Source: Escherichia phage BF17. Taken from it: a DNA stretch of 64,000 bases. This document shows positions 19,921 through 39,354 of this stretch, one piece after another. A model generated the notes under the pieces. It saw nothing but the letters and a program-made list of their open reading frames with translations. It ran no database searches and was not told the origin of the DNA. How positions within the stretch are numbered: position 1 is the first letter of the stretch; each line of letters opens with the position of its first letter. Position numbers and translations under genes: made by a program. Location: sequence record MW822008.1; one strand, given 5' to 3'.

Positions 19921-19997
19921 GATAAAATCTCCTTGTGTTATACTTTATTTAATCATTTTATAATGTACAATTTTACAGCGATTTAATTGAGGTACTC

Positions 19998-20648: not shown

Positions 20649-20654
20649 AAGAAA

Positions 20655-20673
20655 AGCCAGTACATAGTACTGG
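20655..20673. terminator. bidirectional hairpin
   Basis: GCCAGTACATAGTACTGGC between convergent 19998-20648 and 20681-21817. Confidence 0.55.
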
Positions 20674-20680
20674 CATTATA

Positions 20681-21817: not shown

Positions 21818-21831
21818 TCTTTTTCTCCTTG

Positions 21832-22980
21832 TTATATTGATGGCATATCCAACACATATGAGTTGCTAGTGATTGATGAATATGTAGAATTTAAACCTGT
21901 ACTATAAACATAATCACCTGCCCATAAGAATGTTCTATCCAATGTTGTATGTATTTCAATATCATCATATGATGATAATGATATTTGTGCTAGTGTATAT
22001 GTAGTAGCATCAATGTTTGAACCAATACCCAAAGTACCATTGTATTGTGATTGGGAGTTTTGACCAGTTGCATATATACCAGATTTGGTTATTAAATGCT
22101 GATTATACATTGACGTACCTTTAAACAATTTAATTAAATTAGAGTTAGGTGTTGTTATTTGTGCAGGAGCAAGTATTGTTGTTGTAGTGCCACCATCACC
22201 TAATTGTCCATATCGTTGGTAACCACCAGCGTATACCTGTTTAACTCCAGTAGTAGTTTCTATAATAAAGAATGAACCATAGCCAGTAGTATTAAAGTCT
22301 ATAATTTTATTTGTACTCAAACCAACATTATATCTAGTAAATGTTGTTGCATTAGCAGAACCACCAGCATTCCCACCGACCATTTGACCACTATAATAAA
22401 ATGCACCAGTACTGTCAGTATAAGCCATACAGTTCTCACTACCATAGATTTTTACTGGTGTACTGGGGAAACTAGAGGTTATATTCACACATGTATTATA
22501 TTTTGCAGTAGTTCCAGTAATTTCACCATTGTTGTTTTGACCAATTGCCCAAACTGTGTCATCGGAACGTATAGCCATTGAGCTAAAAAACGATGACACA
22601 AATTGTTTAATAAAGGAACCAGGGAGGGAAGTAAGCATACTATTGATTTGTGCACTCACATTGGTCCATGTATTCACAACTGAATTGACACCTGCCGCTG
22701 CACCTGAACCTGAACTCCACCATGATTCATCATTCTTTTTAATCAATGTACCGTTAGCAGAACAATAAACATCAGCAACTGAACTATTAACTAATATCCA
22801 TTCCCTCGCTGTTGTGGTATTACCAGTACCTAGCTGTCCTGCTGCATTACTACCCTTAGCATATAAATCACCACTCTGCGTTAAAAGCATAGCATGTTGG
22901 TATCCAGTAGATAATTTCTTTATTTTTGGTAATGCTGGTGCTTCATTTCCATAATCAAACATTCTAACAAAAGGTAACAT
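21832..22980 (-). CDS. array member 3: RCC1-like repeat protein
   Basis: 382 aa; MLPFVRMFDYGN; AGQLGTGNTT and YGQLGDGGTT; own TATAAT/AAGGAGG cassette. Confidence 0.75.
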   Translation of the reverse strand: MLPFVRMFDYGNEAPALPKIKKLSTGYQHAMLLTQSGDLYAKGSNAAGQLGTGNTTTAREWILVNSSVADVYCSANGTLIKKNDESWWSSGSGAAAGVNSVVNTWTNVSAQINSMLTSLPGSFIKQFVSSFFSSMAIRSDDTVWAIGQNNNGEITGTTAKYNTCVNITSSFPSTPVKIYGSENCMAYTDSTGAFYYSGQMVGGNAGGSANATTFTRYNVGLSTNKIIDFNTTGYGSFFIIETTTGVKQVYAGGYQRYGQLGDGGTTTTILAPAQITTPNSNLIKLFKGTSMYNQHLITKSGIYATGQNSQSQYNGTLGIGSNIDATTYTLAQISLSSYDDIEIHTTLDRTFLWAGDYVYSTGLNSTYSSITSNSYVLDMPSI

Positions 22981-23025
22981 AATTCCCTCCTTTATTCATT
23001 ATACTATATTTAATCAAAAAGAAAA

Positions 23026-23044
23026 GCCAGCACTCTGTACTGGC
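23026..23044 (-). terminator. inter-cassette hairpin with T-run
   Basis: GCCAGCACTCTGTACTGGC, then TATAAT and AAGGAGG of the next gene. Confidence 0.55.
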
Positions 23045-23050
23045 ATAATA

Positions 23051-24202
23051 TTATTTCCACGGTAGAAGTGAATCTGGAACTCTTGTTGGTACATTGGTTG
23101 TTGACACACCTGTGAGATTTGGAACACCACATGTATATAAATTATCAGCTTCATCCACTAGCATTGTATAAGAATATCCCCTACAAAAACTACCAATTGC
23201 ACGGCCTTCTAATGCAGAAAGATTCATTTCAGTAAATGTTGTTATATTTGCCACGTTTGAACCAACACCACATTGACCATTTGTATTCAGACCACATAAA
23301 AATAACTTATTATTATTTTTAATTGTACATGATGGCCCTGCAAGGTTTGTGCCAAGTTCACCCACCAACTCTATTTCACCTTGGAATGATAAATTTGGAA
23401 TTAATGCACTCATAGGAACTGGTGTTGTATTTCCAGTACCAGCTTGTCCCCTAACGTTAGTTGAAGCCACTTTGACGGTCCCATCATTAAGAAATATATA
23501 AGAAGTTTCAATTGTATTGACTGCTTTAGTCGCAGTAATAATAGAAGATTCTTGAGTAAATGTTAGTACGTTTTGTGCTGATGTTCCTGATACAAATGTA
23601 TTACCTGCGTACCAATATGTGCCATCATTGAGCACTAATCCAGTACTGCGTATTGCACACCCAGCACTTCGAACATTTTCAATAGTACTATAAGTGAATT
23701 GTGTAACGCTTGCAGTTGAACCATTTCCAAATACACCACCTATTCCCGCTCCACAGTAGAACCACTTTCCATTTTTTAAAAATACACGTAAACAACCAGA
23801 TATAACAATATTATCAATATCATCTGCAATAACACCGAAGTCAGCAAAGTTCTGTGTTACTTCAACCCAAACACCGTTGGTATCTGCTGATAATATTGGA
23901 ATTACAGACCTTGAACCAGTGTACCAAATAGTTCCATTTTTCTTAATAGCAATTGTACCTTGAACACCACCCCAATAACGTTCCACATTTGTATTGACAT
24001 TAGTCCATGAAGTTGATGTGTTAGTTGAGCCATATGCACCATTACCGCTTTGTCCATATGTTGCTGTACCATACCAATATAGATCGCCTGTAGTGTGTAA
24101 ATAAAATTTGGAATCAGCCGAGCATTGTAATCTATTTTTAAATATAGGTTTTGGCTCTGGTGCTACATTCCCGAACTTAACCATTCTTGCAAAAGGTAAC
24201 AT
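23051..24202 (-). CDS. array member 4: beta-propeller-like repeat protein
   Basis: ORF 23051-24268 trimmed to the conserved MLPFARMVKFGN start; the longer reading runs through the RBS. Confidence 0.7.
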   Translation of the reverse strand: MLPFARMVKFGNVAPEPKPIFKNRLQCSADSKFYLHTTGDLYWYGTATYGQSGNGAYGSTNTSTSWTNVNTNVERYWGGVQGTIAIKKNGTIWYTGSRSVIPILSADTNGVWVEVTQNFADFGVIADDIDNIVISGCLRVFLKNGKWFYCGAGIGGVFGNGSTASVTQFTYSTIENVRSAGCAIRSTGLVLNDGTYWYAGNTFVSGTSAQNVLTFTQESSIITATKAVNTIETSYIFLNDGTVKVASTNVRGQAGTGNTTPVPMSALIPNLSFQGEIELVGELGTNLAGPSCTIKNNNKLFLCGLNTNGQCGVGSNVANITTFTEMNLSALEGRAIGSFCRGYSYTMLVDEADNLYTCGVPNLTGVSTTNVPTRVPDSLLPWK

Positions 24203-24247
24203 ATTTCCTCCTTTATTCATTATACTATATTTAATATAAAAAGAAAA

Positions 24248-24266
24248 GCCAGTATCAAGTACTGGC
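24248..24266 (-). terminator. inter-cassette hairpin with T-run
   Basis: minus strand reads GCCAGTACTTGATACTGGC TTTTCTTTTT, then TATAAT, AAGGAGG, ATG. Confidence 0.6.
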
Positions 24267-24279
24267 ATAGTATTAAGGT

Positions 24280-25410
24280 TTAAATATTTTTATAATTAAT
24301 TTCTACATAGTTACGTTGTGTTCCAGTATATCCTGGAACATTACCTAAATTTCCATTACCTGCACCAAACAGACGTTCTCCGACTGCAAAATATGTCCCA
24401 TAGAAACAACCATCAAACACAGGAACATCATTATAATTTGATATGTAATTATCCATTGAATCCATTCTAGTGTATGCAGTCAGAGTTACATTTGTACCTA
24501 TACCATATGCACCATAAGGGTTAGTACCAGCAACATAATACCCAGTGGGTGTACATATTACTGGTGAATTTGCCCCTGATCTCGTGTGGATAAATCTAAA
24601 TGTACCTTCAGGTACTGGTGCTTCTTTACTGAATAATGTTGTAGCTACTACTGGGTAATCAATACCATAACTATTACCACTCAACCACGTTTTACCATCA
24701 CTATCTTTGAATAATGAACAGGATTGTGTGCATCCGAACAGATTCAAATTGGTTACATTTGGAAATTTACTAATTTGTGTATATACCAGAACTGTGGTTG
24801 CGGTAGCACTACCAAGTTGTCCACGACCATTATCACCCGCACTGTACATGTACCCATCGGTCTTTAATATTATACTAGCGTTTCCTAAAATATCAAAATC
24901 AACAACATCCGTTTGTGTTAATGTAGCTATAGGATAACGAAAATTCACTGCCTCACCAGTACCAAATTGACAATTGGTGTTTACCCCACATCCATATAAG
25001 TTGCCGTTTTGCATTAATATAAACAAACCTGTTGTCATTTTAATTTTCTTAATATTAAGAATATCTATATCTTGGAATATGTGTGTTACATTTACAAATG
25101 TGGTTGAGTTAACAGCACTTGAACCATAATAAGAACCGTTCCCGCTACCAAAGAATTCATCGCCTTTTCTGTACATTGCACATAGACTGCCACCCCATAC
25201 ATCATCAACTCCAGTGTCAATTTGAATAACTGAAGTAACACTAGTTGTTGCACCAGTGCCAAGTTCACCACCTGAATTGAATCCAAAACCATACAAATCT
25301 CCACTTTCGGTGAGCACCAAAACACTGTTAGTGGTTGTGCATGAAATCTTTTTGATATTATTAGATGGTCTTTTATTTCCGTACTTAACCATTCTTGCAA
25401 AAGGTAACAT
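24280..25410 (-). CDS. array member 5: RCC1-like repeat protein
   Basis: trimmed to MLPFARMVKYGN; GGELGTG and RGQLGS repeats. Confidence 0.7.
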   Translation of the reverse strand: MLPFARMVKYGNKRPSNNIKKISCTTTNSVLVLTESGDLYGFGFNSGGELGTGATTSVTSVIQIDTGVDDVWGGSLCAMYRKGDEFFGSGNGSYYGSSAVNSTTFVNVTHIFQDIDILNIKKIKMTTGLFILMQNGNLYGCGVNTNCQFGTGEAVNFRYPIATLTQTDVVDFDILGNASIILKTDGYMYSAGDNGRGQLGSATATTVLVYTQISKFPNVTNLNLFGCTQSCSLFKDSDGKTWLSGNSYGIDYPVVATTLFSKEAPVPEGTFRFIHTRSGANSPVICTPTGYYVAGTNPYGAYGIGTNVTLTAYTRMDSMDNYISNYNDVPVFDGCFYGTYFAVGERLFGAGNGNLGNVPGYTGTQRNYVEINYKNI

Positions 25411-25454
25411 AATTCCTCCTTTATTCATTATACTATATTTAATCAAAAATAAAA

Positions 25455-25473
25455 GCCAGTATCAAGTACTGGC
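25455..25473 (-). terminator. inter-cassette hairpin
   Basis: GCCAGTATCAAGTACTGGC on plus strand. Confidence 0.6.
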
Positions 25474-25487
25474 ATAGTTTTATAGTA

Positions 25488-26597
25488 TCATTTCGGCATT
25501 GTAATTGCAGACCATGAGTTCGTGGTAATAGGACCTGGCACATACAAAAAAGAACCACAAGCATAAATTTGATTATTACCATCAAATACTATACTAAAAT
25601 GTGCACATGTGTATAATGCTGATTTTTCTGGGTTGTAATTATCTAAAGTTAGTGTATTGGTGAATCTACTCAAACCACCACCAGAACCATTTCTACCAAA
25701 TTCACCAGTACTATATATCTTTCCTTCGGTTGTTGCGTACATATTAACATATGAAGTTGCACTTGATTTTGATATTTTATGTATCTTACTATCAATAGTA
25801 GTGGAGTTAAATGCAAATGGATATACTTGTGTGTTCGTTGTAATACCGTTACCAAGTTGACCAACATACTGCCAACCTGCGTTGTATATATTGCTGGCTG
25901 AATAAGCAAGAGTACCAGTACTGTTACCACCAAACAGTTTAACACTGGTTAACCTGCTTACTAGTGTAGTATACTGTCCTGGACTTACGCCAAGTGAACC
26001 ATACCCACTACTCCCACAACCGAGAAGTTCACCATTTGATGTTAATATTAATGTGTTATTCTGTGTACCCAATATATCAAGGACTGTATTAGCTCCGGTA
26101 TTAATAACTGAAACAAAAGTACTCTGAGCCGTGGAATACCCACCACCGAGTGAATAGTTACCATTCATGCCTCTACCATAAACAATCGAACCACTAGCAT
26201 CAACGTAGTGCATTGTATCTGCACCAATTGATATCATTTTAATATTAGATATATGTGGAAATGAAGAAGTAACATTCAAACCACCCAACGGAATCGTAGT
26301 ATTTCCTGTGCCTAATTGTGTGGTAACTCCATGCATTATGAATTCTTCACCCTTGATATAAAGAATATTGTACGCCCCAGCCCATGCATCAGTAACACCT
26401 TCTGAAATTAATATCCAAGTATTTCTTGTTGCTGTATTTGTAACGTTTAACTGAAAATACGAATTAACCCCACAACCATAAAGTGAGCCATCGCCATAGA
26501 GGACGTACAAATTATCAAGACCGCACAGTACTTTCTTTATCTTTGGATCTTCAGGTGCAATATTCCCGTAATCAAACATTCTAACAAAAGGTAACAT
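25488..26597 (-). CDS. array member 6: RCC1-like repeat protein
   Basis: trimmed to MLPFVRMFDYGN; VGQLGNG repeat. Confidence 0.7.
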   Translation of the reverse strand: MLPFVRMFDYGNIAPEDPKIKKVLCGLDNLYVLYGDGSLYGCGVNSYFQLNVTNTATRNTWILISEGVTDAWAGAYNILYIKGEEFIMHGVTTQLGTGNTTIPLGGLNVTSSFPHISNIKMISIGADTMHYVDASGSIVYGRGMNGNYSLGGGYSTAQSTFVSVINTGANTVLDILGTQNNTLILTSNGELLGCGSSGYGSLGVSPGQYTTLVSRLTSVKLFGGNSTGTLAYSASNIYNAGWQYVGQLGNGITTNTQVYPFAFNSTTIDSKIHKISKSSATSYVNMYATTEGKIYSTGEFGRNGSGGGLSRFTNTLTLDNYNPEKSALYTCAHFSIVFDGNNQIYACGSFLYVPGPITTNSWSAITMPK

Positions 26598-26642
26598 ATT
26601 TCCTCCTTTATTCATTATACTATATTTAATACAAAAAGAAAA

Positions 26643-26661
26643 GCCAGTATCAAGTACTGGC
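26643..26661 (-). terminator. inter-cassette hairpin
   Basis: GCCAGTATCAAGTACTGGC. Confidence 0.6.
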
Positions 26662-26668
26662 CTATATC

Positions 26669-27406
26669 TTAGACTGAATTGTCAGGATAATATCTCCCAC
26701 GTCCCCATATTATTCGCACAGCACCACCACCAGCAGCCGTATAAGAAGAATTATCCCATATACTACCACCACCACCATACCTCTTACCAGCACCACCACT
26801 ACCAGCACCACCATTATATGAACCATCGTAGCTACCACCAATACCATTAGCACCTTGAACAATGATACCAGTACCACCACCCGTACCAATGAACGAGGTA
26901 TTATAGAATGCACCACCACCACCGCCCCCGCCAGCACCATTTTCACCAGTGATTGCATTTCCGTTACCACCTTTACCTGTGTAGCCACCAGCACCACCAC
27001 CAATGACTGCACCACCACTTAAACCAGTGTTGCCACCATTACCACCACCATCATTAATAGCGTTAGCAGCTTTTCCACCTAGTCCACCAACCGTATATGC
27101 ACCAGTGAAGCTAACACATAGTTTTTCAGTTCCACGATATAAACCGTTTTCAACTGCTGTAGTAGTGTTGGGATGTGTAAGAGAAACACTTAAGTACTCA
27201 CCACCAGAAACCGGAATATTATTACGCCACGATAAGCCGCCACCAGCACCACGTTGACCACCCGGCGAAATAACACATACTGATATTTCGGTAACGCCAG
27301 CAGGAACTGTAAATTGTGTTGTTCCTATTGTCGTGATTAATTGTTCACCATGTGGCTTATATTCAATTTTATTCCCGAACTTAACCATTCTTGCAAAAGG
27401 TAACAT
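26669..27406 (-). CDS. array member 7: glycine-rich protein with the shared N-terminal tag
   Basis: 245 aa; MLPFARMVKFGN followed by long poly-Gly tracts. Confidence 0.7.
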   Translation of the reverse strand: MLPFARMVKFGNKIEYKPHGEQLITTIGTTQFTVPAGVTEISVCVISPGGQRGAGGGLSWRNNIPVSGGEYLSVSLTHPNTTTAVENGLYRGTEKLCVSFTGAYTVGGLGGKAANAINDGGGNGGNTGLSGGAVIGGGAGGYTGKGGNGNAITGENGAGGGGGGGAFYNTSFIGTGGGTGIIVQGANGIGGSYDGSYNGGAGSGGAGKRYGGGGSIWDNSSYTAAGGGAVRIIWGRGRYYPDNSV

Positions 27407-27451
27407 AATTCCCTCCTTTATTCATTATACTATATTTAACCAAAAAGAAAA

Positions 27452-27470
27452 GCCAGTATCAAGTACTGGC
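27452..27470 (-). terminator. inter-cassette hairpin
   Basis: GCCAGTATCAAGTACTGGC. Confidence 0.6.
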
Positions 27471-27477
27471 TTTTACA

Positions 27478-28668
27478 TTACAATTGTCTAGGTGTATCCA
27501 GTACATATCTATTTGTACTAGGACCACCATCATCATAAGTTCCGGTTGAATATATATTTTTCATATCAGCAGTTAGGAAAGTACGTAACGACCCTCGATA
27601 TATTTTTATTTTATCATACATAGAATATGTTATTTCTGACGGCAATGGACATGCAGTAAATTTACCAATGGTAACATTAGAACCAACACCCAATGAACCA
27701 GCATAACTACTCGCATTTAAACCTGTTGCATATACACCAGAACTCGTAACTAGTATACTAGATTGTGCTGGGTATCCAGTATGAATTGAATACAAAGTAC
27801 CGGGTGGTAAGGTTGAACTATTATTTCCTAATACTGCTCGTGCTGTACTAGACGTAGTGTTATTACCCCATGCCCCATTATTGGCGTTCCCACCCACTAG
27901 GAACTGACGTGCTCCTGTACTTGGATTCTCCACTAAAGCACTGACTGCACCAATTGTACATACAACATATTGTAATGTTTTTGTATATGTTGTACTTGGC
28001 TGATATAAAGTATATTGATTGTATGGAGTCCATGTATCAGTAGTACTTATACCTGATGTACTACCACCAATATATAAATTATTTTGTGTATCATAAAACA
28101 TTACACAGCTATTTGTTGACTGTATTCGTGCAATATCAACATTAGGCGTGACAGCTTTTACAAATGATCCATCTGTTATTTGTTGAGTACTACCAGTACC
28201 ATCAGCGAATTGTCTAGCCCCACTCCAACCAGTACTCCATATTGTATTATTATCCATTAAGAAAGTAAACCAAGTAGTACCTGCATACATCTGTTTAATT
28301 GAAGTACCTGAACTTTGTGTGTACAAATTTTCAATATATTGGTTATAACTTAAAAATGATGTAGTACTAGTTTCTAAACCAATATGACCACCATATCCAC
28401 AATAAAAATAATTTAAGTCCTTATCTTGAACTAACAAAGTTCCTTGTGTCATCCAGCAATCTTTGACATTTTCTCTAATTAATGTCCACGACCTTACTGC
28501 ATTATTATTTCCGCGACCGAACTTCCCATAACTATTATTTCCTCGTGCGTATAGTTGACCGTCAGTATAAAGTACAACCACATCAGTATCAGTTGGTATT
28601 ATTTTCTTAATTAGAAGAGGTTCAGGTGTGATATTCCCATAATCAAACAATCTAACAAAAGGTAACAT
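27478..28668 (-). CDS. array member 8: beta-propeller-like repeat protein
   Basis: 396 aa; MLPFVRLFDYGN; Thr/Ser/Asn/Gly-rich. Confidence 0.7.
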   Translation of the reverse strand: MLPFVRLFDYGNITPEPLLIKKIIPTDTDVVVLYTDGQLYARGNNSYGKFGRGNNNAVRSWTLIRENVKDCWMTQGTLLVQDKDLNYFYCGYGGHIGLETSTTSFLSYNQYIENLYTQSSGTSIKQMYAGTTWFTFLMDNNTIWSTGWSGARQFADGTGSTQQITDGSFVKAVTPNVDIARIQSTNSCVMFYDTQNNLYIGGSTSGISTTDTWTPYNQYTLYQPSTTYTKTLQYVVCTIGAVSALVENPSTGARQFLVGGNANNGAWGNNTTSSTARAVLGNNSSTLPPGTLYSIHTGYPAQSSILVTSSGVYATGLNASSYAGSLGVGSNVTIGKFTACPLPSEITYSMYDKIKIYRGSLRTFLTADMKNIYSTGTYDDGGPSTNRYVLDTPRQL

Positions 28669-28713
28669 ATTTCCCTCCTTTATTCATTATACTATATTTA
28701 ACCAAAAAGAAAA

Positions 28714-28732
28714 GCCAGTACTTGATACTGGC
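28714..28732 (-). terminator. inter-cassette hairpin
   Basis: GCCAGTACTTGATACTGGC. Confidence 0.6.
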
Positions 28733-28738
28733 GTAATG

Positions 28739-29881
28739 TCAATAAGCTTCCCACGGTAAGGGTGTCTTCCTAAATCCATACCTGGTTGTGGTCGCACCAT
28801 CACCAGCAATGTATCGACCGATACCACATTGGTATAACTCTGTACTACTACATATAGCACCACCAATAGTACCACTACTCCACAGAATTATATTAGAATA
28901 TGTTATTGGTAAATCACTACATTTAGTATATACACCAACGGTAGCAGCCCCACTAATACCACCAAACATACTTCGGTTAGCACCAGTATAATATATACCA
29001 TCTGGACTCATAAATGCAGAGGTGTAAGTTGTACTACAATCCACTGGACTTCTTATAGTATTAAGATCGCCTGGGTATGTCCTGGCACCAAAGGTGTATA
29101 CATTACCATCAGTTGTAATACCATTACCTAACTGCCCACTGTTTTGTCCACCACATGTAAGCAACAATGCAGAACCAGAAACAATTGCAGTAGCATTATA
29201 CGAAGTACCCATCGCAATAGAAGCACCAGACAATAGTTTTGGAGTAACAATAGCTGTTGTATTACCCTGGCCTAATTCACCATTGATATTTCGTCCCCAT
29301 GCGTATATAGAAGTTGTATCCAATCGACATAGTACTGAACCATAACTAAACGTATATCGCATGTCAATTACCGCATTAGGCAAATTAACCTTAGTTGCAA
29401 CACTAATAACACCACCAGTAACACCACTGTTTGCGTTCATGTTACGACCATATGCATATAAAGAACCATCTGAAGTTTTAATATGCATCATACCATCTGT
29501 ACAATACAATGCATCTATACTATCCACTGCAACCGGACCCATACTGGTAGTTATATCGGTCCACCCAAGCGTGGTAGTACTGGAAATTAAGTTATTTCCG
29601 GCGTATAGTATTCTATTATTATTAGTAACTACAACTGTATATCTGGCAGTAACACCAATTAATCGAACATCAGTATATATCTTAGACCACGCACCTAATG
29701 AATTGGTGTTTGCATCCAAAAAGCCCAACTGCCCATCTGTATTGTATCCAATACCCCATACATCACCTGCACTGTCCAATAACACTTCATGTGAAAATCC
29801 AATCTTAAAATCTTTTATTGTAGGAACTACCGGAACTGGTGCAATATTCCCGTACTTAACCATTCTAGCAAAAGGTAACAT
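28739..29881 (-). CDS. array member 9: RCC1-like repeat protein
   Basis: 380 aa; MLPFARMVKYGN; DGQLG, NGELGQG, SGQLGNG repeats. Confidence 0.75.
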   Translation of the reverse strand: MLPFARMVKYGNIAPVPVVPTIKDFKIGFSHEVLLDSAGDVWGIGYNTDGQLGFLDANTNSLGAWSKIYTDVRLIGVTARYTVVVTNNNRILYAGNNLISSTTTLGWTDITTSMGPVAVDSIDALYCTDGMMHIKTSDGSLYAYGRNMNANSGVTGGVISVATKVNLPNAVIDMRYTFSYGSVLCRLDTTSIYAWGRNINGELGQGNTTAIVTPKLLSGASIAMGTSYNATAIVSGSALLLTCGGQNSGQLGNGITTDGNVYTFGARTYPGDLNTIRSPVDCSTTYTSAFMSPDGIYYTGANRSMFGGISGAATVGVYTKCSDLPITYSNIILWSSGTIGGAICSSTELYQCGIGRYIAGDGATTTRYGFRKTPLPWEAY

Positions 29882-29927
29882 AATTCCCTCCTTTATTCAT
29901 TATACTATATTTAATACAAATAAGAAT

Positions 29928-29946
29928 GCCAGTATCAAGTACTGGC
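29928..29946 (-). terminator. inter-cassette hairpin
   Basis: GCCAGTATCAAGTACTGGC. Confidence 0.6.
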
Positions 29947-29952
29947 ATTATG

Positions 29953-31062
29953 TTATTTTGGTAAATCAATTTTAGTAAAGACTGCAACATCCTCGCTTGC
30001 TCCAGGAATGGCGTAATACGATCCAGTACTATACACATCTCCATCTTTGGTTAATATTGATGTCAAACCATCACTAAAAAGAACATCCCTAATTGCACTA
30101 ACTTCAACGGGTAATTGTAAATTTGTAGCACTATATATAGCACCAGTTTGAGAATTGTTTAATCCCAAACCACGGTTCGCCCCAACACCCTTCTGATATG
30201 TACTAGTAATTACCATTTGTGTCGCAGTATTTAAGGCAGGTGAATTCGTCATAAACAACGGAGAACTATTCGGCAAAGTACTTACAGGAACTGCACGGAA
30301 TGTAGTCGTACCTGAACTAAGAAAGTTTGGAGTTTGACCACATACGAAATATGATGTGCCATTATAGTAATTTAATGCATTACCACCAATTGCTGCATCG
30401 ATTACACCAGAACTACGTAATCCCCAAGTGTTAACTTGTGTTTGGCTCCCCGTGCCATGCTGCCCACTGCTATTCCATCCAGAACTATATAGCTTATTAT
30501 CTAATGTAAGATACATACTATCATTCGCATTGGTCATTACTTTACGAACGTTCGTAGCACATTGAGTTAATGTGTAAATTGATGATGAACCAATACCTAA
30601 AGAACCACGATATCCATTATCTCCTGCACCATAGAGTACTGAATTAGTGCTAAGTACAAATATTAAACCATTTGTACATACAATATTAGCAATTTCACTT
30701 ACTGGTATTGCATTTGTGAACCAACTGGTTCTATCAACTAATACAGTACTGTAAGAAGTAGTTGTGGAAGATGTGAACCAGTACGTTTGACCTGATGACC
30801 ATATCGTATTATCATTTTTAATAATAACAAGTGTACGATCACCCACGAAAAAATTAGAAACATCTGTACTTACTAATATCCATGAGGATACTGTGTTGGT
30901 ATTTCCATTTCCAGATTCACCACCTTGATTTCTACCTATGTAATATAAATCATGTGAATCTGTCAATAAGAATTGACCCTGTGTAGAAGCACCAACTTTA
31001 ATTATATTTTTAGGACCAGGTGTGATATTCCCATAATCAAACAATCTAACAAAAGGTAACAT
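29953..31062 (-). CDS. array member 10: beta-propeller-like repeat protein
   Basis: 369 aa; MLPFVRLFDYGN; 10 nt downstream of member 11. Confidence 0.7.
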   Translation of the reverse strand: MLPFVRLFDYGNITPGPKNIIKVGASTQGQFLLTDSHDLYYIGRNQGGESGNGNTNTVSSWILVSTDVSNFFVGDRTLVIIKNDNTIWSSGQTYWFTSSTTTSYSTVLVDRTSWFTNAIPVSEIANIVCTNGLIFVLSTNSVLYGAGDNGYRGSLGIGSSSIYTLTQCATNVRKVMTNANDSMYLTLDNKLYSSGWNSSGQHGTGSQTQVNTWGLRSSGVIDAAIGGNALNYYNGTSYFVCGQTPNFLSSGTTTFRAVPVSTLPNSSPLFMTNSPALNTATQMVITSTYQKGVGANRGLGLNNSQTGAIYSATNLQLPVEVSAIRDVLFSDGLTSILTKDGDVYSTGSYYAIPGASEDVAVFTKIDLPK

Positions 31063-31072
31063 ATTTCTCTCC

Positions 31073-32203
31073 TTAATTTAGTAATGCCCCTGGCAAATCC
31101 ACTTTGACGAATTGTGCATATGCTGAGGAATTTTGATCAAAGTTTGGTCCCAATCCATAAAATGAGCTAATGCCGTCTTCATTTGTGTATATGATATAAA
31201 CGTTCTTTACATCATTTCCGCATATAAATCGAATGTCTTTCGTTTGTGTTCCCGCTGGAACATTACGAAGGTTCACAACGCCATTACTTGCATTGTTATC
31301 AGCCGACGCAATTGGTAATTGATTTTGACCATATTGACCACGCATATTTTTTGCATCTAAACCAAACACAGTATCTGATACCGCACCAACTTTCAAAAAT
31401 GAACCAAAACTATTATTGAATGACTTTGGAAATGTACCACTATAAACACTTCTCCCATCTGATAATACCGCTGAACTGAATTTCCCGCTATTCGATATGG
31501 CAAATTCATTGTAAGGAAGTGTACCCATTTTGGTATATACAGAATATGAATTAGTGGAAGTATTATCAATAATCTTATTACCATTATATCCAATACCATA
31601 CTGGTATCCGTCTGCATCTTGAACTATACACAAAGGACCACTTGGGGTTTGTGTCAACGAAACAACACGTTCAACTTGTATATCACCAAATGTATTTCTT
31701 CGCCATGTTCTATCTATTATAGTACTAGTATTACCCAAAGATAATGCCACACTATATAATAGATTGTTTTCAGTAAAAATGGCAACATAATATGCGTGGT
31801 TAATAACTTGCTTCATCCCAGCATCAATAACTTCCTGTGGAATATGATCAGTAACATCCAACCAATCAAGGTTAGATGATGCAATATCTGGAGTACTGAA
31901 TTTGTCAAATCTAGTTGAGCCACAAACTAGCACTCTATCATCATTTGTCAAAGCCACTGTGCTAGTCTGCATATTAGAACTGAATGATTTAACATTACTA
32001 ATGTTAGACTTGTACCAACCCTTATCAGCAGCACCCACCGTGAATCCGGTTCCCATTGATCCACTTGTACTTGTACCATAAGCCCACATCTCACCACTAT
32101 ATGTTAGTGCCATACAGTGGCTTCCATTTGCTTGGAAATCCTTTATACCAGTGGGAGCAACCACTGTATTCCCATAATCAAACATTCTAACAAAAGGTAA
32201 CAT
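31073..32203 (-). CDS. array member 11: beta-propeller-like repeat protein
   Basis: trimmed to MLPFVRMFDYGN; more divergent body. Confidence 0.65.
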   Translation of the reverse strand: MLPFVRMFDYGNTVVAPTGIKDFQANGSHCMALTYSGEMWAYGTSTSGSMGTGFTVGAADKGWYKSNISNVKSFSSNMQTSTVALTNDDRVLVCGSTRFDKFSTPDIASSNLDWLDVTDHIPQEVIDAGMKQVINHAYYVAIFTENNLLYSVALSLGNTSTIIDRTWRRNTFGDIQVERVVSLTQTPSGPLCIVQDADGYQYGIGYNGNKIIDNTSTNSYSVYTKMGTLPYNEFAISNSGKFSSAVLSDGRSVYSGTFPKSFNNSFGSFLKVGAVSDTVFGLDAKNMRGQYGQNQLPIASADNNASNGVVNLRNVPAGTQTKDIRFICGNDVKNVYIIYTNEDGISSFYGLGPNFDQNSSAYAQFVKVDLPGALLN

Positions 32204-32245
32204 AACTAAAATCTCCATATAATAATTATAATGTATTTACAAAAA

Positions 32246-32269
32246 AATACCAGTACGTATTTCAGTACT
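32246..32269 (-). terminator. inter-cassette hairpin (variant)
   Basis: ACCAGTACGTATTTCAGTACTGGT. Confidence 0.5.
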
Positions 32270-32277
32270 GGTATCAT

Positions 32278-33459
32278 TTATGGTAAAATGATAGATTGTA
32301 ACGAACTCATACCCAATGCTGGAACACTAGCCTGTGGTGCTGGAGAATTCAATTTTGGTGATGAAACCGCATAAGTCATTCCTGTACCCAAATCTGGATC
32401 AAAAACTACAGCACAATAATTCCCACTATATATAAGTCCATTCTTGTATCCTTGTGCACTTTGAATGCATTTCGTGAACGTACCAATATCTGTAGTGGCA
32501 TTTATTAAGTTCCTCCCACGATAACCGCAGGTGTATATGAAATTATCATCGCCTATGTACATACTAGAATCCCCAGAAGAACTACATAGATACGACATAT
32601 AAGCACGCATGTTTTTAGGAGCAACTGACAATGTACCTGCATAGAATTTATTATTCGAACCCGTAATATCACCATCACCCAATGCACCAAAACTTCCCCA
32701 GCCAGTACCGTAATATCTCTTATCACTCAAAAATATAATACAGTTGTTATTACACATCTTGATTTGATATATCAATGAAGGATCAACCCCAGGGAATGAT
32801 TCAGTGAATGTTAGAACAGCCGGATCAGTACTAGCATTACATTGATGATATGTATTAGTACCAGCGGACAAGATTGTTCCATTAGCTAACAGAATTCTCG
32901 CAGTACCAGTACCAGCAGTACAAGCAACTGCACTTCCTGCACTTCCGGTGTATATTTGTCTGAAAGTAAAGAAACCAACAGTCTTACTCCCTTGTCCACT
33001 CCAACCAGTATTATCAACACCACACGCCCATACTGAACCATCTTCCATGATCATCATTACACCAAAGCGTTCTATTGAAATATAAACAATCTTTTTAGTA
33101 TCAACTGCACGAAATCTAGAAGTTATATCCGTCCAAACCTTTACACTTACCGAAGTCGCACTGGAAGTAGGATCTTCACCTGCTATCATTATCCTACCAT
33201 TGTTAGTCAGATACATTGTCTGACTATAACCAGTACTACAAAACTTAACACTATCAGTCTCTGGAACTTTTAACCACTCGTTGTAACGTGTTACGTTAGT
33301 GTTATTACCTAACTGATAATAGTTATTCATCCCAGATACATATAACACACCATCCTTTATTAAACTATAAGTCGCACTATAGTCACTACAGGTATAACGT
33401 GTACCCACAGGTCGCTCAACGACGTTCCCATAATCAAACATTCTAACAAAAGGTAACAT
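32278..33459 (-). CDS. array member 12: beta-propeller-like repeat protein
   Basis: 393 aa; MLPFVRMFDYGN; 9 nt downstream of member 13. Confidence 0.7.
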   Translation of the reverse strand: MLPFVRMFDYGNVVERPVGTRYTCSDYSATYSLIKDGVLYVSGMNNYYQLGNNTNVTRYNEWLKVPETDSVKFCSTGYSQTMYLTNNGRIMIAGEDPTSSATSVSVKVWTDITSRFRAVDTKKIVYISIERFGVMMIMEDGSVWACGVDNTGWSGQGSKTVGFFTFRQIYTGSAGSAVACTAGTGTARILLANGTILSAGTNTYHQCNASTDPAVLTFTESFPGVDPSLIYQIKMCNNNCIIFLSDKRYYGTGWGSFGALGDGDITGSNNKFYAGTLSVAPKNMRAYMSYLCSSSGDSSMYIGDDNFIYTCGYRGRNLINATTDIGTFTKCIQSAQGYKNGLIYSGNYCAVVFDPDLGTGMTYAVSSPKLNSPAPQASVPALGMSSLQSIILP

Positions 33460-33468
33460 GATTTTCTC

Positions 33469-34662
33469 CTATGATTGCCATAACTGCGTTGGCATTAATG
33501 TTAATGTTTTAATTAAGTAAGTACCATCCGGTAAGTTACCACCTGAACCGTTAAAGCCCCCACATGCATATAATTTATAATCTTTAGTTATAATTATTGT
33601 TCTGGACCAGTCTTTGGATGCCATAAGAACATTGTCATATCCACCCTGTATCGCACTTAAAGAAAACGCCCCCCACGAAGTAATTACTGTTGTATTTCCC
33701 GTCCCTTCTTGACCATATGTATTGATGCCTGCACTCCTGACATATGATGGGTATTGAGCCATAGGTGCACCAATTGTTGAGTTACCCATATTACTAGGAC
33801 ACAGGAAACCATCACTAATATTCACTATAACCTGTGAATTCTGAACTGTAGTTAATTGGTTTGTAGTTGAAGTAGTACCATTCCCAGCTTGTCCAGAATT
33901 GTTTCTACCACTCCAGTACACCCTACCGGCAGTGAACCACCAGGTAACATCATAAGTAGCACTTATATAATCGACGTTGGTTCGTATTAATTTATTAGTA
34001 AAAACGTATGAGCTAGTCCCACCACCACTTTCACCAAAGTTATCCTTACCACAAAACCATGCTTCTTTATTTGTTTTGAGATAGTGCGTACCCTGTAATG
34101 AACACGCCAATTGAGAAACTTCACCCATACCAGTAACAACTGTTAGTACTGGAATGGAATTTTGGTTACCTGTTCCACATTCGGCATTTGCATTTTTACC
34201 ACAAACAACTACTCTTCCATCGTGTAGTAATATTCTAGTACTTTCACCTATATGTACACTCTTGATTAAATTAGCGTGTACATTTATTTTGTTAAATGCG
34301 GCAGTAACATCAGTCCATGTTCTAAAATAACCATTAACTGGAGTTGCATCTCCATAATCGGGGAATGCTACAGTATTCCCTGTGAAATATATTCTATTAT
34401 CCAAGTCAATCATCAATGAGCCATGAACGCCTAACCAAAAGGCTGCACAGTGCGTTGCCAGTACTGTAAAAGTAGAAACTGTCGATTGATTCCCTAGACC
34501 TAATTGGCTCAAGTTATTACCACCATAACCGTATAGTGTATTCGTGGGCTTATGTAGATACATAGCATTAGTATAATGTTGCTGTAAAACATCAGTGAAC
34601 TCAACTGGTTCAGGAATAGGCAGTTTATTCCCGTATTTAACCATTCTTGCAAAAGGTAACAT
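33469..34662 (-). CDS. array member 13: RCC1-like repeat protein
   Basis: 397 aa; MLPFARMVKYGN. Confidence 0.7.
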   Translation of the reverse strand: MLPFARMVKYGNKLPIPEPVEFTDVLQQHYTNAMYLHKPTNTLYGYGGNNLSQLGLGNQSTVSTFTVLATHCAAFWLGVHGSLMIDLDNRIYFTGNTVAFPDYGDATPVNGYFRTWTDVTAAFNKINVHANLIKSVHIGESTRILLHDGRVVVCGKNANAECGTGNQNSIPVLTVVTGMGEVSQLACSLQGTHYLKTNKEAWFCGKDNFGESGGGTSSYVFTNKLIRTNVDYISATYDVTWWFTAGRVYWSGRNNSGQAGNGTTSTTNQLTTVQNSQVIVNISDGFLCPSNMGNSTIGAPMAQYPSYVRSAGINTYGQEGTGNTTVITSWGAFSLSAIQGGYDNVLMASKDWSRTIIITKDYKLYACGGFNGSGGNLPDGTYLIKTLTLMPTQLWQS

Positions 34663-34725
34663 ATTTCCCTCCTTTATTCATTATACTATATTTAATCAAA
34701 AATAAATGCCAGTACTCATTTAATT

Positions 34726-35880
34726 TTAACGAGGTATAACTATTTTTTTGAATAATCCAGTATTTCCTGCATTTTCTTCTTCATATGGAATTGTACCCAT
34801 ACCAGCAGTTCTGCCACCATTCCCTGAACCATACAGTTCTCCATTCTTAATCATGAATGTTATCATATAACCATGTGTCATTTTATCATATGGAACTGGT
34901 TCAGTTATATTATTACATGCTCGCCATGTACTAATAACACGAGAGTTCGTTATACCATCACCTGATGCGTTTCCTCGACCAGCGAAATACCATATCCCAC
35001 CTGCTCTAACGTGTGCTTCATAATTAGAACCACCTATGTAATCAATCGCAGTACTAGGAATACTAGAAGCTGGTATCTTTGTGATTGTTCTAAGACTGTT
35101 AATAGTGCCATCAGTTCCATCACCCAACTGTCCATCTATTTGTGAACCGAATACATATAGCCCATCACTCTTTAATACGTAATTAGCACTATATGCATTT
35201 TCTGAATTTATCTGTAATACTCCAGTAGTAACAGTAGTCAATGTGGTAGTTGTACTAGTCGTACCAGTCGAACCAATACTAGATTTATTCCCACTGTACT
35301 TTAATGTCCCATCATTGTATAATACAAATGAAGCATTATTCGCGGTTACACCAATATCTTTAACATCAACTTCAGGTGTCAATGTCAGTACTGATACTCT
35401 TTGTCCAACAGCCCCAGTAAAAACTTCACCGTTGTTATTGTCACCCATCTTATATAATTTATTATCTATTGTTAATAATAATGTAACGCCGTTTCCTATA
35501 ACTATTTTACTATATGTGTCATTCACATTATTAAAAATACCAAGTATTTCTGTCCATACACGATAAGTAGTATTAACACCACGATAGATTTGAGTACCAG
35601 TACTCCACCATGTGCCATCATTTTTACGTACTAATATTCCTTGTGTATCACCAGTAGTCCAAAATTCCTTTACATCAGTTAAACATAAAACCCACTCTTC
35701 AACTATAGTAGGAGAACTACTACCAGTACCTAATTGATAGTAAAAATTATGCCCTCTGCCATATAATCTTCCGTCTTCTAATAAAATAAACACATTATTC
35801 TGTAAAACTTTTACCATCTTTATACCAACTGGCACAGGTGCTTCATTCCCATAATCGAACATTCTAACAAAAGGTAACAT
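34726..35880 (-). CDS. array member 14: RCC1-like repeat protein
   Basis: ORF 34726-36015 trimmed to MLPFVRMFDYGN; DGQLGDGTDGT. Confidence 0.7.
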   Translation of the reverse strand: MLPFVRMFDYGNEAPVPVGIKMVKVLQNNVFILLEDGRLYGRGHNFYYQLGTGSSSPTIVEEWVLCLTDVKEFWTTGDTQGILVRKNDGTWWSTGTQIYRGVNTTYRVWTEILGIFNNVNDTYSKIVIGNGVTLLLTIDNKLYKMGDNNNGEVFTGAVGQRVSVLTLTPEVDVKDIGVTANNASFVLYNDGTLKYSGNKSSIGSTGTTSTTTTLTTVTTGVLQINSENAYSANYVLKSDGLYVFGSQIDGQLGDGTDGTINSLRTITKIPASSIPSTAIDYIGGSNYEAHVRAGGIWYFAGRGNASGDGITNSRVISTWRACNNITEPVPYDKMTHGYMITFMIKNGELYGSGNGGRTAGMGTIPYEEENAGNTGLFKKIVIPR

Positions 35881-35926
35881 ATTCCCTCCTTTATTCATTA
35901 TAATATATTTAATACAAAAAAGAAAA

Positions 35927-35945
35927 GCCAGTATCAAGTACTGGC
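35927..35945 (-). terminator. inter-cassette hairpin
   Basis: GCCAGTATCAAGTACTGGC. Confidence 0.6.
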
Positions 35946-35953
35946 ATATTAAT

Positions 35954-37102
35954 TTACTGCACAAATGACATATCGACTTCGGTATAATTAAGAACGTTCT
36001 GTCCAGCACTACCACCCATTACTACAAATGAAGCACCCGAATAATATAACTTCGAAGTGTCAGTAAGTATAAGTGAACCAGATGGAGTGCGTACCAAATT
36101 ACACGAAGTATTAAACGAAGTATATGAAGGAGTATAGGAGTACTGATTATTATTATTACCAACACCTAATTGCCCAAACCCATTCGATCCAGAAGCATAT
36201 AGAACTTCATCTGCTTTGACAATATGTGATGCCATGTTACCAACACAAGTATATAGAGTATAAACTCCTGAACTCAATAATGTCGGAGTTTTATATTGTA
36301 TATCTGTAGATGTAGAAGTACCACCTGTACCAAATTCGTTCCCATATTGTGCACCGAACTGTTTACCACAAGCGTACAAATTATTATCCGATTTGATAAA
36401 AAATGTACTCTGATAACTTACATTAAAATCTATAACATCCGAAGAAATCATCGTCACCCCAGTAATAGAAGTTTGATTACCCGTGCCCAACTGGTAGTAA
36501 TAGTTAAAACCACAACCCCATAAAGTATTATCTTCTCGCAAATAAATGTTACCAACTGCCTTTTTAACCGAAGTTATAGTATCTACTCTTTTGAATGTGT
36601 TAAAAGAATTAATGTTTGTGCCATCACCAAATGATGATATGTTCGATATATTGTTAGTTCCACAACAATACAATGTACCATCGTTTGTTATCAAATTCAC
36701 CTTCATATCATAAAAACTACTCATGTATTTTATATCAGAAACATTAATACCACTTGATGTTATCCACGTAGTACAGTCCGTCCACAAAGTTTTTCTATCA
36801 GTTACACCAGTGAATGCCTTCGTGTTACCAGTGATAAAAACTTTTCCAGTACCTTTCTCTTCATACAATTGACAATCACTACTGTTATCTTCCAATAGAA
36901 CTCGTTTAACATTCTCCGCACAAAGAATAAATTTACTCGATGTTACACCTGTACCAGTACCCCAATTCGCCGCAGAAGATGCATACAACTTATCAGTATA
37001 AGTATCATGAAGATACATAGAATCACTGGAATATATTTTAAAACGCCCAGAGTTGGTAGGTGCTTCATTCCCATAATCAAACATTCTTACAAAAGGTAAC
37101 AT
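35954..37102 (-). CDS. array member 15: RCC1-like repeat protein
   Basis: 382 aa; MLPFVRMFDYGN; YYQLGTGNQTS and FGQLGVGNNNN; 12 nt downstream of member 16. Confidence 0.75.
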   Translation of the reverse strand: MLPFVRMFDYGNEAPTNSGRFKIYSSDSMYLHDTYTDKLYASSAANWGTGTGVTSSKFILCAENVKRVLLEDNSSDCQLYEEKGTGKVFITGNTKAFTGVTDRKTLWTDCTTWITSSGINVSDIKYMSSFYDMKVNLITNDGTLYCCGTNNISNISSFGDGTNINSFNTFKRVDTITSVKKAVGNIYLREDNTLWGCGFNYYYQLGTGNQTSITGVTMISSDVIDFNVSYQSTFFIKSDNNLYACGKQFGAQYGNEFGTGGTSTSTDIQYKTPTLLSSGVYTLYTCVGNMASHIVKADEVLYASGSNGFGQLGVGNNNNQYSYTPSYTSFNTSCNLVRTPSGSLILTDTSKLYYSGASFVVMGGSAGQNVLNYTEVDMSFVQ

Positions 37103-37114
37103 ATTTCCTCCAAA

Positions 37115-38020
37115 TTATTTAAAAACATACTGCGTATTAACACGTGTCCCGTTGTCGTAACCAAGTACGTAAAATATTTCAGCACTATTATTAGAGCCAA
37201 ATAATGCACCAGTACTATTACTCAACGTTGTATTGATAGCTAATGGTATCCATTTGTTTTGCTCGGCATCATATTTTAATAAATTTAATGCACCATAAGA
37301 TACTGCATATATACCTTTGTCATATCTATTGTAAATTATCTTACTAGGGTTAGCTCCACCAACTGCTGCCATTCTTGACCAAACCGCACTCTCTATGTGA
37401 TATTTTTGTGCAGGAGTAGATCCTTGTCCTGTAAAATATATGTAAGTACCATCAGTGCACATATCACCACCACCATTGTTTGTTGTATTCCCAGTAGTAC
37501 CTAACGATGCCCATGTATTAGTACTCGGCGTATAACTATATAATGCAGTATTAGACGGTGAACCCCACAAATATATCTTATCCCCTGTAGTAATCATCTT
37601 ACTATATACTGCCTGGTTAGGTTTGCCAACACTTGTATTATTCAGTGTCCATGTATCAGAGCTTATGTCATATACATAAAAATTATTATTAGCAACATTC
37701 GCTGCACCTAAACCACCGAACAAATATATTTTTCCTTGATAGGCACACAATGCACTTCCATAGGTGGATACTGGTGGTGATGATAATTGTACCCATATTC
37801 TAGAATTTAAATTAAAACTCCATAACTGATTATCCTGGTTCGAAGTATTCATTATACCACCAAATATATAAGCAGTATTTCTTGATGCATCATACGTATA
37901 ACCAAAGTTATTTCGTGCTGAAGGTACTGGTGATGTGGTAAATTGAGTTCGTACACCACCATTTGGGACTGGTAATGGAGCTTCATTCCCGTAATCAAAC
38001 ATTCTAACAAAAGGTAACAT
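37115..38020 (-). CDS. array member 16: Kelch-like repeat protein with the shared N-terminal tag
   Basis: 301 aa; MLPFVRMFDYGN then repeated IY(L)FGG...W blades. Confidence 0.7.
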   Translation of the reverse strand: MLPFVRMFDYGNEAPLPVPNGGVRTQFTTSPVPSARNNFGYTYDASRNTAYIFGGIMNTSNQDNQLWSFNLNSRIWVQLSSPPVSTYGSALCAYQGKIYLFGGLGAANVANNNFYVYDISSDTWTLNNTSVGKPNQAVYSKMITTGDKIYLWGSPSNTALYSYTPSTNTWASLGTTGNTTNNGGGDMCTDGTYIYFTGQGSTPAQKYHIESAVWSRMAAVGGANPSKIIYNRYDKGIYAVSYGALNLLKYDAEQNKWIPLAINTTLSNSTGALFGSNNSAEIFYVLGYDNGTRVNTQYVFK

Positions 38021-38123
38021 AAATCCCTCCTTTATTCATTATATCATATTTACCCCAAAAAGAAAACCCTTGACAACCTTCCAGTACTGATGTACTATAG
38101 AAGGAATATAAGGAGAACTGTAC
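38021..38123. promoter_or_regulatory. divergent promoter region
   Basis: minus-strand TATAAT/AAGGAGG for member 16 plus plus-strand TTGACA-17-TACTAT and AAGGAG for 38124. Confidence 0.5.
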
Positions 38124-38560: not shown

Positions 38561-38561
38561 T

Positions 38562-38747: not shown

Positions 38748-38758
38748 AAGAGTACTAT

Positions 38759-39153: not shown

Positions 39154-39163
39154 AGAGAATACT

Positions 39164-39346: not shown

Positions 39347-39354
39347 GGTAATAT

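Follow-up and report, generated by a model that had tools for sequence, protein, structure and literature searches.

A Kelch beta-propeller behind a shared 12-residue N-terminal tag in a gene array of Escherichia phage BF17: a putative virion-docking peptide for exchangeable heads

The Kelch-like proteins CBB_550, CBB_552 and CBB_554 of Pectobacterium phage vB_PcaM_CBB (CBB) were discussed by Buttimer et al. (2017, PMC5259590), who treated them as oddities without obvious homologues in other Rak2-like phages, and arrays of RCC1-like proteins in 121Q and phAPEC6 are known as 'DNA condensation proteins' (Wagemans et al. 2020, PMC7247149). The principle of an anchor with a variable head and the shuffling of gene cassettes are also already known from the multi-tailspike phages, the capsid-targeting signal (CTS) of T4 and the promoter early stem-loop (PeSL) cassettes of the T4-like phages. 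In this study, which was based on a stretch of 64,000 nucleotides of Escherichia phage BF17 (record MW822008.1; hereafter, the window), we analysed a gene that encodes a Kelch beta-propeller behind a 12-residue N-terminal tag and that belongs to an array of genes sharing this tag (Table 1). BF17, whose genome has 383,493 bp, is an Asteriusvirus of the 121Q/PBECO4 group of E. coli jumbo phages. The Kelch gene is counted here as member 1 of the array (member 16 in the initial annotation, which was made from the window). Taken alone, it is ordinary and already annotated in relatives: its product is a hypothetical protein in BF17 (100% identity), a 'virion structural protein' in vB_Ec-M-J (EcMJ_585, 99% identity, without stated evidence) and a 'kelch-like protein' in Escherichia phage A4 and in CBB. 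Its interest lies in the system around it. We found no published description of the 12-residue tag, its spread over unrelated folds, its retention in the virion or its putative dual role as an in-frame recombination junction; a literature search with the tag strings returned no paper, the texts of the phAPEC6, CBB and RaK2 papers, as searched by term, did not mention it, and a 2026 jumbo-phage review had no match for CBB, phAPEC6 or 121Q and described hair-like appendages without named proteins. We propose, at about an even chance, that the tag is an uncleaved virion-docking peptide that would carry exchangeable binding heads to a common site.

The body of the Kelch member had been described in the initial annotation as Kelch-type rather than RCC1-type, and profile scoring agreed with this. 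Only Kelch families of Pfam matched the open reading frame (ORF), with PF24681 at 2.6e-26 and 92.7 bits (cut-off 50) and the single-repeat families Kelch_3 (63.9 bits), Kelch_6 (58.6), Kelch_4 (58.5), Kelch_1 (47.9) and Kelch_2 (26.9) all over their curated cut-offs, and no RCC1-family match was found at E<=1. The AlphaFold2 model, which was built with 39 homologues, had a predicted local distance difference test score (pLDDT) of 88.6 and a predicted template modelling score of 0.87. Its 24 strands form six four-stranded blades, the N-terminal strand at residues 24-27 closing blade 6, and thus the earlier count of about five blades was right as to type and one short as to number. A strand-D tryptophan is present in blades 1-5, while blade 6 takes its outer strand from the N-terminus, which explains that count. 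A Kelch blade is marked by a hydrophobic strand B with GG, an aromatic residue in strand C and a tryptophan in strand D; the GG is present only in blades 1 and 2 (YIFGG, YLFGG) and is degenerate in blades 3-6 (YLWGS, YFTGQ, YAVSY, YVLGY). The best Foldseek neighbours in the PDB were Kelch propellers only, mostly six-bladed, at E of about 1e-14, and included KLHDC10, NS1-BP, LZTR1, KLHDC2 and the SAKe6 designs, and the PDB sequence matches obtained with phmmer were LZTR1, KLHDC3/10 and KEAP1. For the Kelch member and member 2 together, the phmmer search of the PDB returned only Kelch and RCC1 proteins, mostly eukaryotic, and no phage particle component. Across the Kelch homologues, variability was greatest in the B-C loops (conservation 0.50 compared to 0.70 for the strands); a claim of an arms race based on these loops was dropped as the signal was too weak.

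The neighbouring member 2 showed how different the bodies behind the tag can be. Its AlphaFold2 model (pLDDT 77) is an RCC1-like propeller, and its best Foldseek matches were UVR8, RPGR, HERC2 and RCC1 (template modelling score 0.76). Among the five RCC1-type members that were scanned with Pfam, PF00415 was over its cut-off in all five and PF13540 in three, while PF25390 stayed below its cut-off. In a BLASTP comparison of the Kelch member with member 2, residues 1-15 were identical (15/15), as the claim of a tag shared by the Kelch-like member would have it, and there was no significant similarity beyond residue 15; the hhalign profile-profile probability between the Kelch member and the RCC1 paralogues of the window was 0.3%. 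Six blades compared to seven and the lack of profile similarity behind an identical 15-residue N-terminus mean that duplication and drift cannot explain this pair. A highly diverged RCC1 paralogue, or a Kelch call that is a profile artefact, might be suspected because both beta-propellers are rich in S/T/N/G and the gene lies inside an RCC1 array, but this is hardly credible: the Kelch profiles matched at 1e-13 to 1e-26, the structural neighbours were exclusively Kelch, and Kelch orthologues are kept at 35-77% identity across genera. The candidate of a diverged RCC1 paralogue was thus ruled out by profiles, blade count and hhalign. Two propeller families do occur behind one tag, as had been stated, and the window additionally holds a third type of body, the Gly-rich member 10. 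This member has no Pfam match, belongs to phrog_4474 of unknown function and has orthologues in 121Q (gene 243, 95% identity) and CBB. The RCC1 bodies of the window are only 20-27% identical to each other while their tag is invariant.

The tag has the consensus M-L-P-F-x-R-x-x-x-Y-G-N, and the N-terminus of the Kelch protein reads MLPFVRMFDYGNEAP. All 16 window members agree at M1, L2, P3, F4, G11 and N12, and nearly all at R6 and Y10; variable residues occur at position 9 and behind N12 (D, K, E, Q, N, T). Two subtypes were distinguished in the window, ten genes having a MLPFVRMFDYGN-like tag and six MLPFARMVK[YF]GN. A degenerate DNA pattern of the tag had nine matches in the window compared to none expected from shuffles. 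Most members continue with xAPxP-like linkers, and in the AlphaFold2 models of both the Kelch member and member 2 the tag is disordered and followed by a proline-rich linker. In the Kelch protein, residues 4-20 have a pLDDT below 50, and the tag, as modelled, does not fold onto its own body. The conservation in eight aligned Kelch homologues was 0.43 for the linker compared to 0.73 for the tag, whose even positions (L2, F4, R6, F/V8, Y10) make up a strand-like conserved face.

Proteins were assigned here to the tagged set if residues 1-12 read M-[LI]-P-F-x5-[YF]-[GA]-N and if a linker and then an unrelated body came behind them; the Kelch member and its orthologues in A4, EJP2, CBB, Hallingskeid, pEa_SNUABM_12 and XbC2 all have this form. 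Using a 23-residue tag-plus-linker query, tblastn detected the tag in 60 phage records, none of them smaller than 310 kb; an Asteriusvirus genome had it at 6-15 places. These jumbo phages infect Escherichia, Salmonella, Erwinia, Yersinia, Cronobacter, Serratia, Pectobacterium, Klebsiella and Xanthomonas, and the motif persists in Asteriusvirus, Mimasvirus, Eneladusvirus and Hallingskeid as well as in Yersinia, Serratia and Salmonella jumbo phages. A DNA-pattern scan of IMG/VR agreed with this picture apart from a few chance matches. A PF09950 major capsid protein that starts with MLPFTPLDGYGN in IMG/VR contigs of 21-72 kb was set aside as a probable coincidence, the number of matches being about that expected by chance. 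In IMG/VR and the GenBank relatives, the bodies behind the tag were RCC1, Kelch, Laminin_G_3/ConA-like and Gly-rich ones as well as several families of 170-260 residues without a Pfam match. Moreover, other jumbo phages encode fusions of tag, RCC1 and Kelch of 667-676 residues, whose C-terminal halves are 26-32% identical to the window Kelch body or to CBB_550. Pfam confirmed both domains only in the fusion of locus L009, while BLAST ties those of L013 and L023 to both families, and XbC2_591 (689 residues, L033 359-2425) would be of the same type as judged by its length and tag. In the window, the RCC1 and Kelch propellers are encoded by separate adjoining genes that appear to be co-transcribed, in the order opposite to that of the fusions.

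Tagged Kelch orthologues were found in EJP2 and A4 (75-77% identity), metagenomic jumbo phages (46-51%), CBB (CBB_550, 37%) and the Erwinia phage Hallingskeid (35%), in which the orthologue also heads an RCC1 array. Among the close relatives, the Kelch unit is present in BF17/vB_Ec-M-J, A4, Turkey5 and EJP2 and is missing from the 121Q-type phages. The ratio of nonsynonymous to synonymous substitution rates of the gene was 0.21 compared to the EJP2 orthologue, and the unit is old and under purifying selection; the combination of tag and Kelch body likewise did not arise recently. Besides the full-length orthologue CBB_550, whose tag (MLPFPRLIEYGN) is of the same family, CBB shares with the window a similar cluster of tagged genes, but the partners in CBB are mainly of the Laminin_G_3 type rather than RCC1 propellers. 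About 95 nt upstream of CBB_554, there is a truncated remnant of a tag, ATGTTACCTTTTCCGCAATTGGTGGTGCTGTAA (MLPFPQLVVL*), possibly what is left of a member that was lost or rearranged.

The initial annotation had argued for module exchange rather than simple duplication and drift, and the comparison with relatives supports it through unrelated folds, a tag-bounded indel, swaps of tag subtypes, the ends of homology blocks and the fusions. In 121Q, which is without the Kelch gene, member 2 has its orthologue in gene 248 (94% identity in the body). This gene directly follows the intergenic cassette and the divergent gene found ahead of the Kelch gene in the window, the upstream block of 416 bp being 88% identical. 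The two genomes differ by an indel of exactly the Kelch body, its stop codon, the 12-nt spacer with its ribosome-binding site (RBS) and one tag, with a tag-coding repeat at either end of the indel; the two repeats agree at 41 of 45 nt. A deletion in 121Q, from tag to tag, seems the more likely direction. For members 2, 7, 9 and 11, the bodies in the window and in 121Q are 86-97% identical but the tags in front of them belong to different subtypes, MLPFVRMFDYGN or MLPFVRLFDYGN in the window and MLPFARMVKYGN-like in 121Q. All of the 11 homology-block ends compared to vB_Ec-M-J and 121Q were situated either within the cassette or 19-52 nt inside a coding sequence, i.e., at the end of the tag. The array content is a mosaic, in which some members have a counterpart in vB_Ec-M-J but not in 121Q, others in 121Q but not in vB_Ec-M-J, and two in neither phage: members 4 (33469-34662, minus strand) and 12 (24280-25410, minus strand) reach a best body identity of only 27-32% in these phages, which illustrates the fast turnover of the array content, and EJP2 has a gene with 85% identity to member 4. 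The Kelch gene stands in third place in the EJP2 array, with a cassette on each side. In the 121Q array (L027 5090-9911), genes 234/235, 237, 238 and 239/240 are fragmented or shortened, with products that include 68 and 269 residues, which suggests decay or sequencing frameshifts. Additionally, in five of six genomes, the Kelch tag matches the non-Kelch tags of its own genome better (10-12 of 12 positions) than those of Kelch orthologues elsewhere (9-10 of 12), while in CBB the two tie at 10. The sequence comparisons therefore support separate histories of tag and body, and the indel, the subtype swaps, the block ends and the homogeneity of the tags point to recombination or gene conversion at the tag or the cassette as the process that exchanges the heads.

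It was previously stated that the Kelch gene lies at the promoter-proximal end of the array. This proved to be a misnomer: 12 of the 16 members, the Kelch gene included, have a promoter-like cassette of their own, 11 of the 12 with a clear terminator hairpin, while the other four start only 10-14 nt after their predecessor. The cassette consists of a hairpin (GCCAGTAC...GTACTGGC) with a T-run, TAAATA-N3-TATAAT, AAAGGAGG and the ATG; upstream of the Kelch gene the hairpin is degenerate and the RBS lies 5 nt upstream of the ATG. The spacer between the Kelch gene and member 2 contains neither terminator nor promoter, which suggests that the two are co-transcribed; the Kelch gene probably has its own promoter and is probably co-transcribed with member 2 only. 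Eleven minus-strand hairpins were detected in or beside the array, nine between members, which are followed by TAAATA-N3-TATAAT, and two flanking member 16. The terminator scan found 22 sites in total compared to 7.9 +/- 3.3 expected, while sigma-70-like sites were not enriched (76 found compared to 96 expected). The motif TAAATA-N3-TATA[AT][AT] occurs 11 times in the window, and in every case an array member follows it immediately. The 150 kb of non-array sequence of vB_Ec-M-J that were scanned have it three times, upstream of a head-tail adaptor gene, a tail-tube gene and an orphan tagged RCC1 gene, and there was none in 100 kb of an early-type region. As the motif is common to head-tail adaptor and tail-tube genes and missing from the early-type region, it is read as a late-type promoter. 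The orphan gene (OQ718158.1, 98812-99984, minus strand), for which GenBank has no feature at this place, encodes 390 residues (MLPFARMVKYGNRAP...) and is far from the array. At 34726-36015, 23051-24268, 24280-25446 and 25488-26615 (minus strand), the ORF list gave upstream extensions (e.g., ...MNKGGNMLPF...) that are artefacts; they run in frame through the RBS and promoter cassette, and the true start is the methionine of MLPF.

A similar organisation was described for the PeSL cassettes of T4-like phages (Arbiol et al. 2010, PMC2839356; Comeau et al. 2014, PMC4122927), in which repeats of a terminator hairpin and a promoter occupy a hyperplastic region and the repeated cassettes form the boundaries of indels and replacements between close relatives. 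However, the PeSL promoter is early, compared to the late-like one here, and, unlike the PeSL, the repeat of the array reaches about 36-45 nt into the coding sequence, so that recombination preserves an in-frame peptide tag. It could be asked whether the shared 5' end is kept only for reasons of the nucleic acid, i.e., translation initiation, mRNA stability or a tract for recombination and conversion, with a functionless peptide. In the window, the DNA of the tag is indeed homogenised (ATG TTA CCT in 16 of 16 members, TTT in 15), the upstream cassette is nearly identical and the homology blocks end at the tag. Across genera, however, the codons vary synonymously (CCG/CCA/CCT, TTA/CTT, TAT/TAC, GGA/GGT) while the peptide is kept, even in CBB, in which the upstream DNA is not conserved; this indicates that selection acts on the peptide, and its persistence across many jumbo-phage genera makes the nucleic-acid explanation very improbable.

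In CBB and phAPEC6, tagged proteins are associated with virions. Mass spectrometry of CBB detected the tagged CBB_536, 537, 548, 549, 551, 552 and 553 with a coverage of 9.5-51%, the paralogue CBB_552 being detected and the Kelch orthologue CBB_550 not (PMC5259590). In phAPEC6, six early-numbered array products were detected (gp003, 005, 006, 007, 009 and 010), four of which are labelled 'DNA condensation protein' (PMC7247149). The arrays of 121Q and phAPEC6 have the tag and the promoter cassette in common with the window, and they differ from the Kelch member in their seven-bladed RCC1 folds. The supplementary peptide table of CBB contains LFEYANVIIPPNYK, LLQYGNK and YANVIVEYATK from CBB_536, CBB_553 and CBB_548, which cover tag residues 7-12 or 10-12 and the residues that follow; hence, the tag is not removed in CBB virions. 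No conserved cleavage site, neither (L/I)xE of the T4 type nor (S/A/G)xE of the phiKZ type, was found at the tag boundary, and there is no conserved Glu motif in or after the tag. A cleavage motif was rejected as a defining feature; sites such as GNE|AP and APE|P occur in some members and are not conserved. The tagged proteins have isoelectric points of 5.1-9.1 and contain 36-50% S/T/N/G compared to 23% in other window ORFs, and 10-16% K/R/D/E compared to 24%. With so few charged residues and so much S/T/N/G, the label 'DNA condensation', which comes from the RCC1 name, does not fit.

These data also bear on the comparison with the CTS on IPI-III of T4 (PMC3012670), which likewise is a short N-terminal peptide on unrelated, rapidly exchanged proteins encoded at a plastic locus. 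By analogy, the tag could be a capsid-targeting signal that brings the proteins inside the head, e.g., into the inner body of phAPEC6, perhaps to be ejected as a set that acts against host defences or organises DNA. The authors of the phAPEC6 study proposed RCC1 proteins for this inner body (PMC7247149); virion association in CBB and phAPEC6 would be equally expected, and beta-propellers, as protein-binding scaffolds, could act as inhibitors. Nevertheless, we consider this unlikely. In T4, the prohead protease cuts off the CTS, and the proteins that carry it are small, basic and internal, while here the tag is retained on large (25-75 kDa), charge-poor and mostly neutral or acidic proteins, some with Laminin_G_3/ConA-like bodies. 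Such domains are typical of external carbohydrate binders. The published idea of DNA condensation and an inner body is drawn from the family name, and the composition, the retained tag and the lectin-type relatives argue otherwise.

Hair-like fibres on the tail and capsid without assigned proteins were described for CBB (PMC5259590) and phAPEC6 (PMC7247149) and were also seen in 121Q. The authors of the CBB study expected the hair components among the virion proteins without a GAP32 gene (PMC5259590), and four of these six are tagged (536, 537, 551 and 552). One way to build such hairs would be self-assembly, with the tag inserting as a strand into the next tagged protein or into a shaft so that the proteins polymerise into the hairs or stud them. 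The strand-like face of the tag, its free and disordered state in the monomer models, the unassigned hairs and the high coverage of several tagged CBB proteins are consistent with this, but both propeller models are closed and complete, with no obvious vacant slot for a strand, and the phAPEC6 peptide counts are low; polymerisation through the tag is thus distinctly improbable. Docking onto a common acceptor is the reading we prefer. The Kelch ORF product would then be a modular virion protein of a Rak2-like jumbo phage, made of a tag, a short proline-rich linker and a propeller. The tag, which would probably be a short strand conserved on one face (L2, F4, Y10), would attach unrelated beta-rich heads (RCC1, Kelch, Laminin_G_3/ConA-like, Gly-rich and others) to an acceptor site that they all share, likely on hair-like fibres or decorations of the capsid and tail. 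The genes would be expressed from late-type promoters, and the virion would gain a mixed, exchangeable set of ligand-binding heads with a possible role as adhesins. Recombination and gene conversion in the repeated cassette of about 100 nt (terminator hairpin, promoter, RBS and tag) may insert, delete, replace and reorder heads and keep the tags of one genome alike, the Kelch unit being one such exchangeable cassette. Multi-tailspike anchors, i.e., TSP1-4 of ViI/CBA120 and gp526/gp529 of RaK2 (PMC3622015), similarly combine a conserved N-terminal attachment with an exchangeable C-terminal module in several versions per virion, but they are folded, have about 50 or more residues and belong to trimeric fibres or spikes at the baseplate, while the tag of the array is a 12-residue disordered peptide on apparently globular heads of the propeller or lectin type.

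Several observations weigh against docking at the virion surface. The array products of phAPEC6 were detected with only 1-4 peptides each, and their association with the virion may be low-copy or adventitious. The tryptic peptides of CBB are uninformative on the presence of tag residues 1-6. In GAP32, for which no hairs were reported, there are still about three tagged genes, and a globular propeller of 40 kDa is not in itself enough to account for hairs of about 119 nm. The homogeneity of the tags within a genome could come from gene conversion alone, for which a shared partner is not needed. Finally, the surface placement and the acceptor site are inferred, and the late class of the promoters is read from a motif.

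The features of the locus are listed in Table 1. The ORF that splits the array has no Pfam match and belongs to phrog_34359 of unknown function; 121Q has an ORF equal to it in size and position (gene 233). On the other side of the Kelch cassette, divergent from the array, at least eight small ORFs of 61-75 residues lie at 38124-39924 (plus strand). Many of them are paralogous, with several ending in ...Y.EVLKLI..., and they look like another tandemly expanded family.

Table 1. Positions of the array, its members and regulatory features in the window
Feature	Position	Strand	Basis or remark
Tagged Kelch protein gene, array member 1	37115..38020	-	301 residues, ATG start
Tag MLPFVRMFDYGN, codons 1-12	37985..38020	-	sequence and model
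Proline-rich linker EAPLPVPNGGV, codons 13-23	37952..37984	-	low model confidence
Six-bladed Kelch beta-propeller, codons 24-301	37118..37951	-	AlphaFold2 strands, Foldseek, PDB sequence matches
Kelch upstream cassette	38021..38110	-	motif TAAATATGATATAAT at 38038-38052, RBS AAGGAGGG at 38025-38032
Spacer TTTGGAGGAAAT, Kelch stop to member 2 ATG	37103..37114	-	12 nt, no terminator or promoter
Member 2, tagged RCC1-like seven-bladed propeller	35954..37102	-	382 residues; Pfam RCC1, AlphaFold2, Foldseek
Member 10, tagged Gly-rich protein, MLPFARMVKFGN...	26669..27406	-	245 residues; third body type in window
Whole array, 16 tagged genes: 14 RCC1-like, 1 Kelch, 1 Gly-rich	18796..38020	-	all-frame protein scan
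216-residue ORF splitting array between members 15 and 16	19998..20648	+	ORF list
Example terminator hairpin GCCAGTACTTGATACTGGC with T-run	35927..35945	-	terminator scan
Similar hairpins	32246-32275, 29925-29949, 28714-28732, 27448-27474, 26641-26663	-	terminator scan
Further hairpins	25455-25473, 24248-24266, 23026-23044, 20656-20674, 18765-18791	-	terminator scan

The hair-like appendages and decorations of 121Q, phAPEC6 and CBB-type phages are still without assigned proteins, and the RCC1 arrays are labelled by their family name. One retained tag across RCC1, Kelch, Laminin_G_3 and other bodies leads to a hypothesis, open to testing, on the way in which these proteins become part of the virion and suggests a purpose of the arrays, i.e., an exchangeable set of binding heads, together with a concrete recombination mechanism that would generate diversity in the interaction with hosts. 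As a candidate portable signal, the tag might also serve to display foreign proteins on jumbo phages. A bolder form, which we put forward tentatively and as somewhat less probable than docking in general, is that the 12 residues (MLPFxRxxxYGN) are a universal plug that loads a shuffled library of binding domains onto one socket, the recombination junction capturing heads in frame. The socket would be, e.g., the fibres of the capsid hexamers or the tail hairs, and each virion would carry a combinatorial mixture of heads. If this is true, these phages would have a built-in system of display and diversification, and the tag would be a ready-made tool for engineering the surfaces of jumbo phages.

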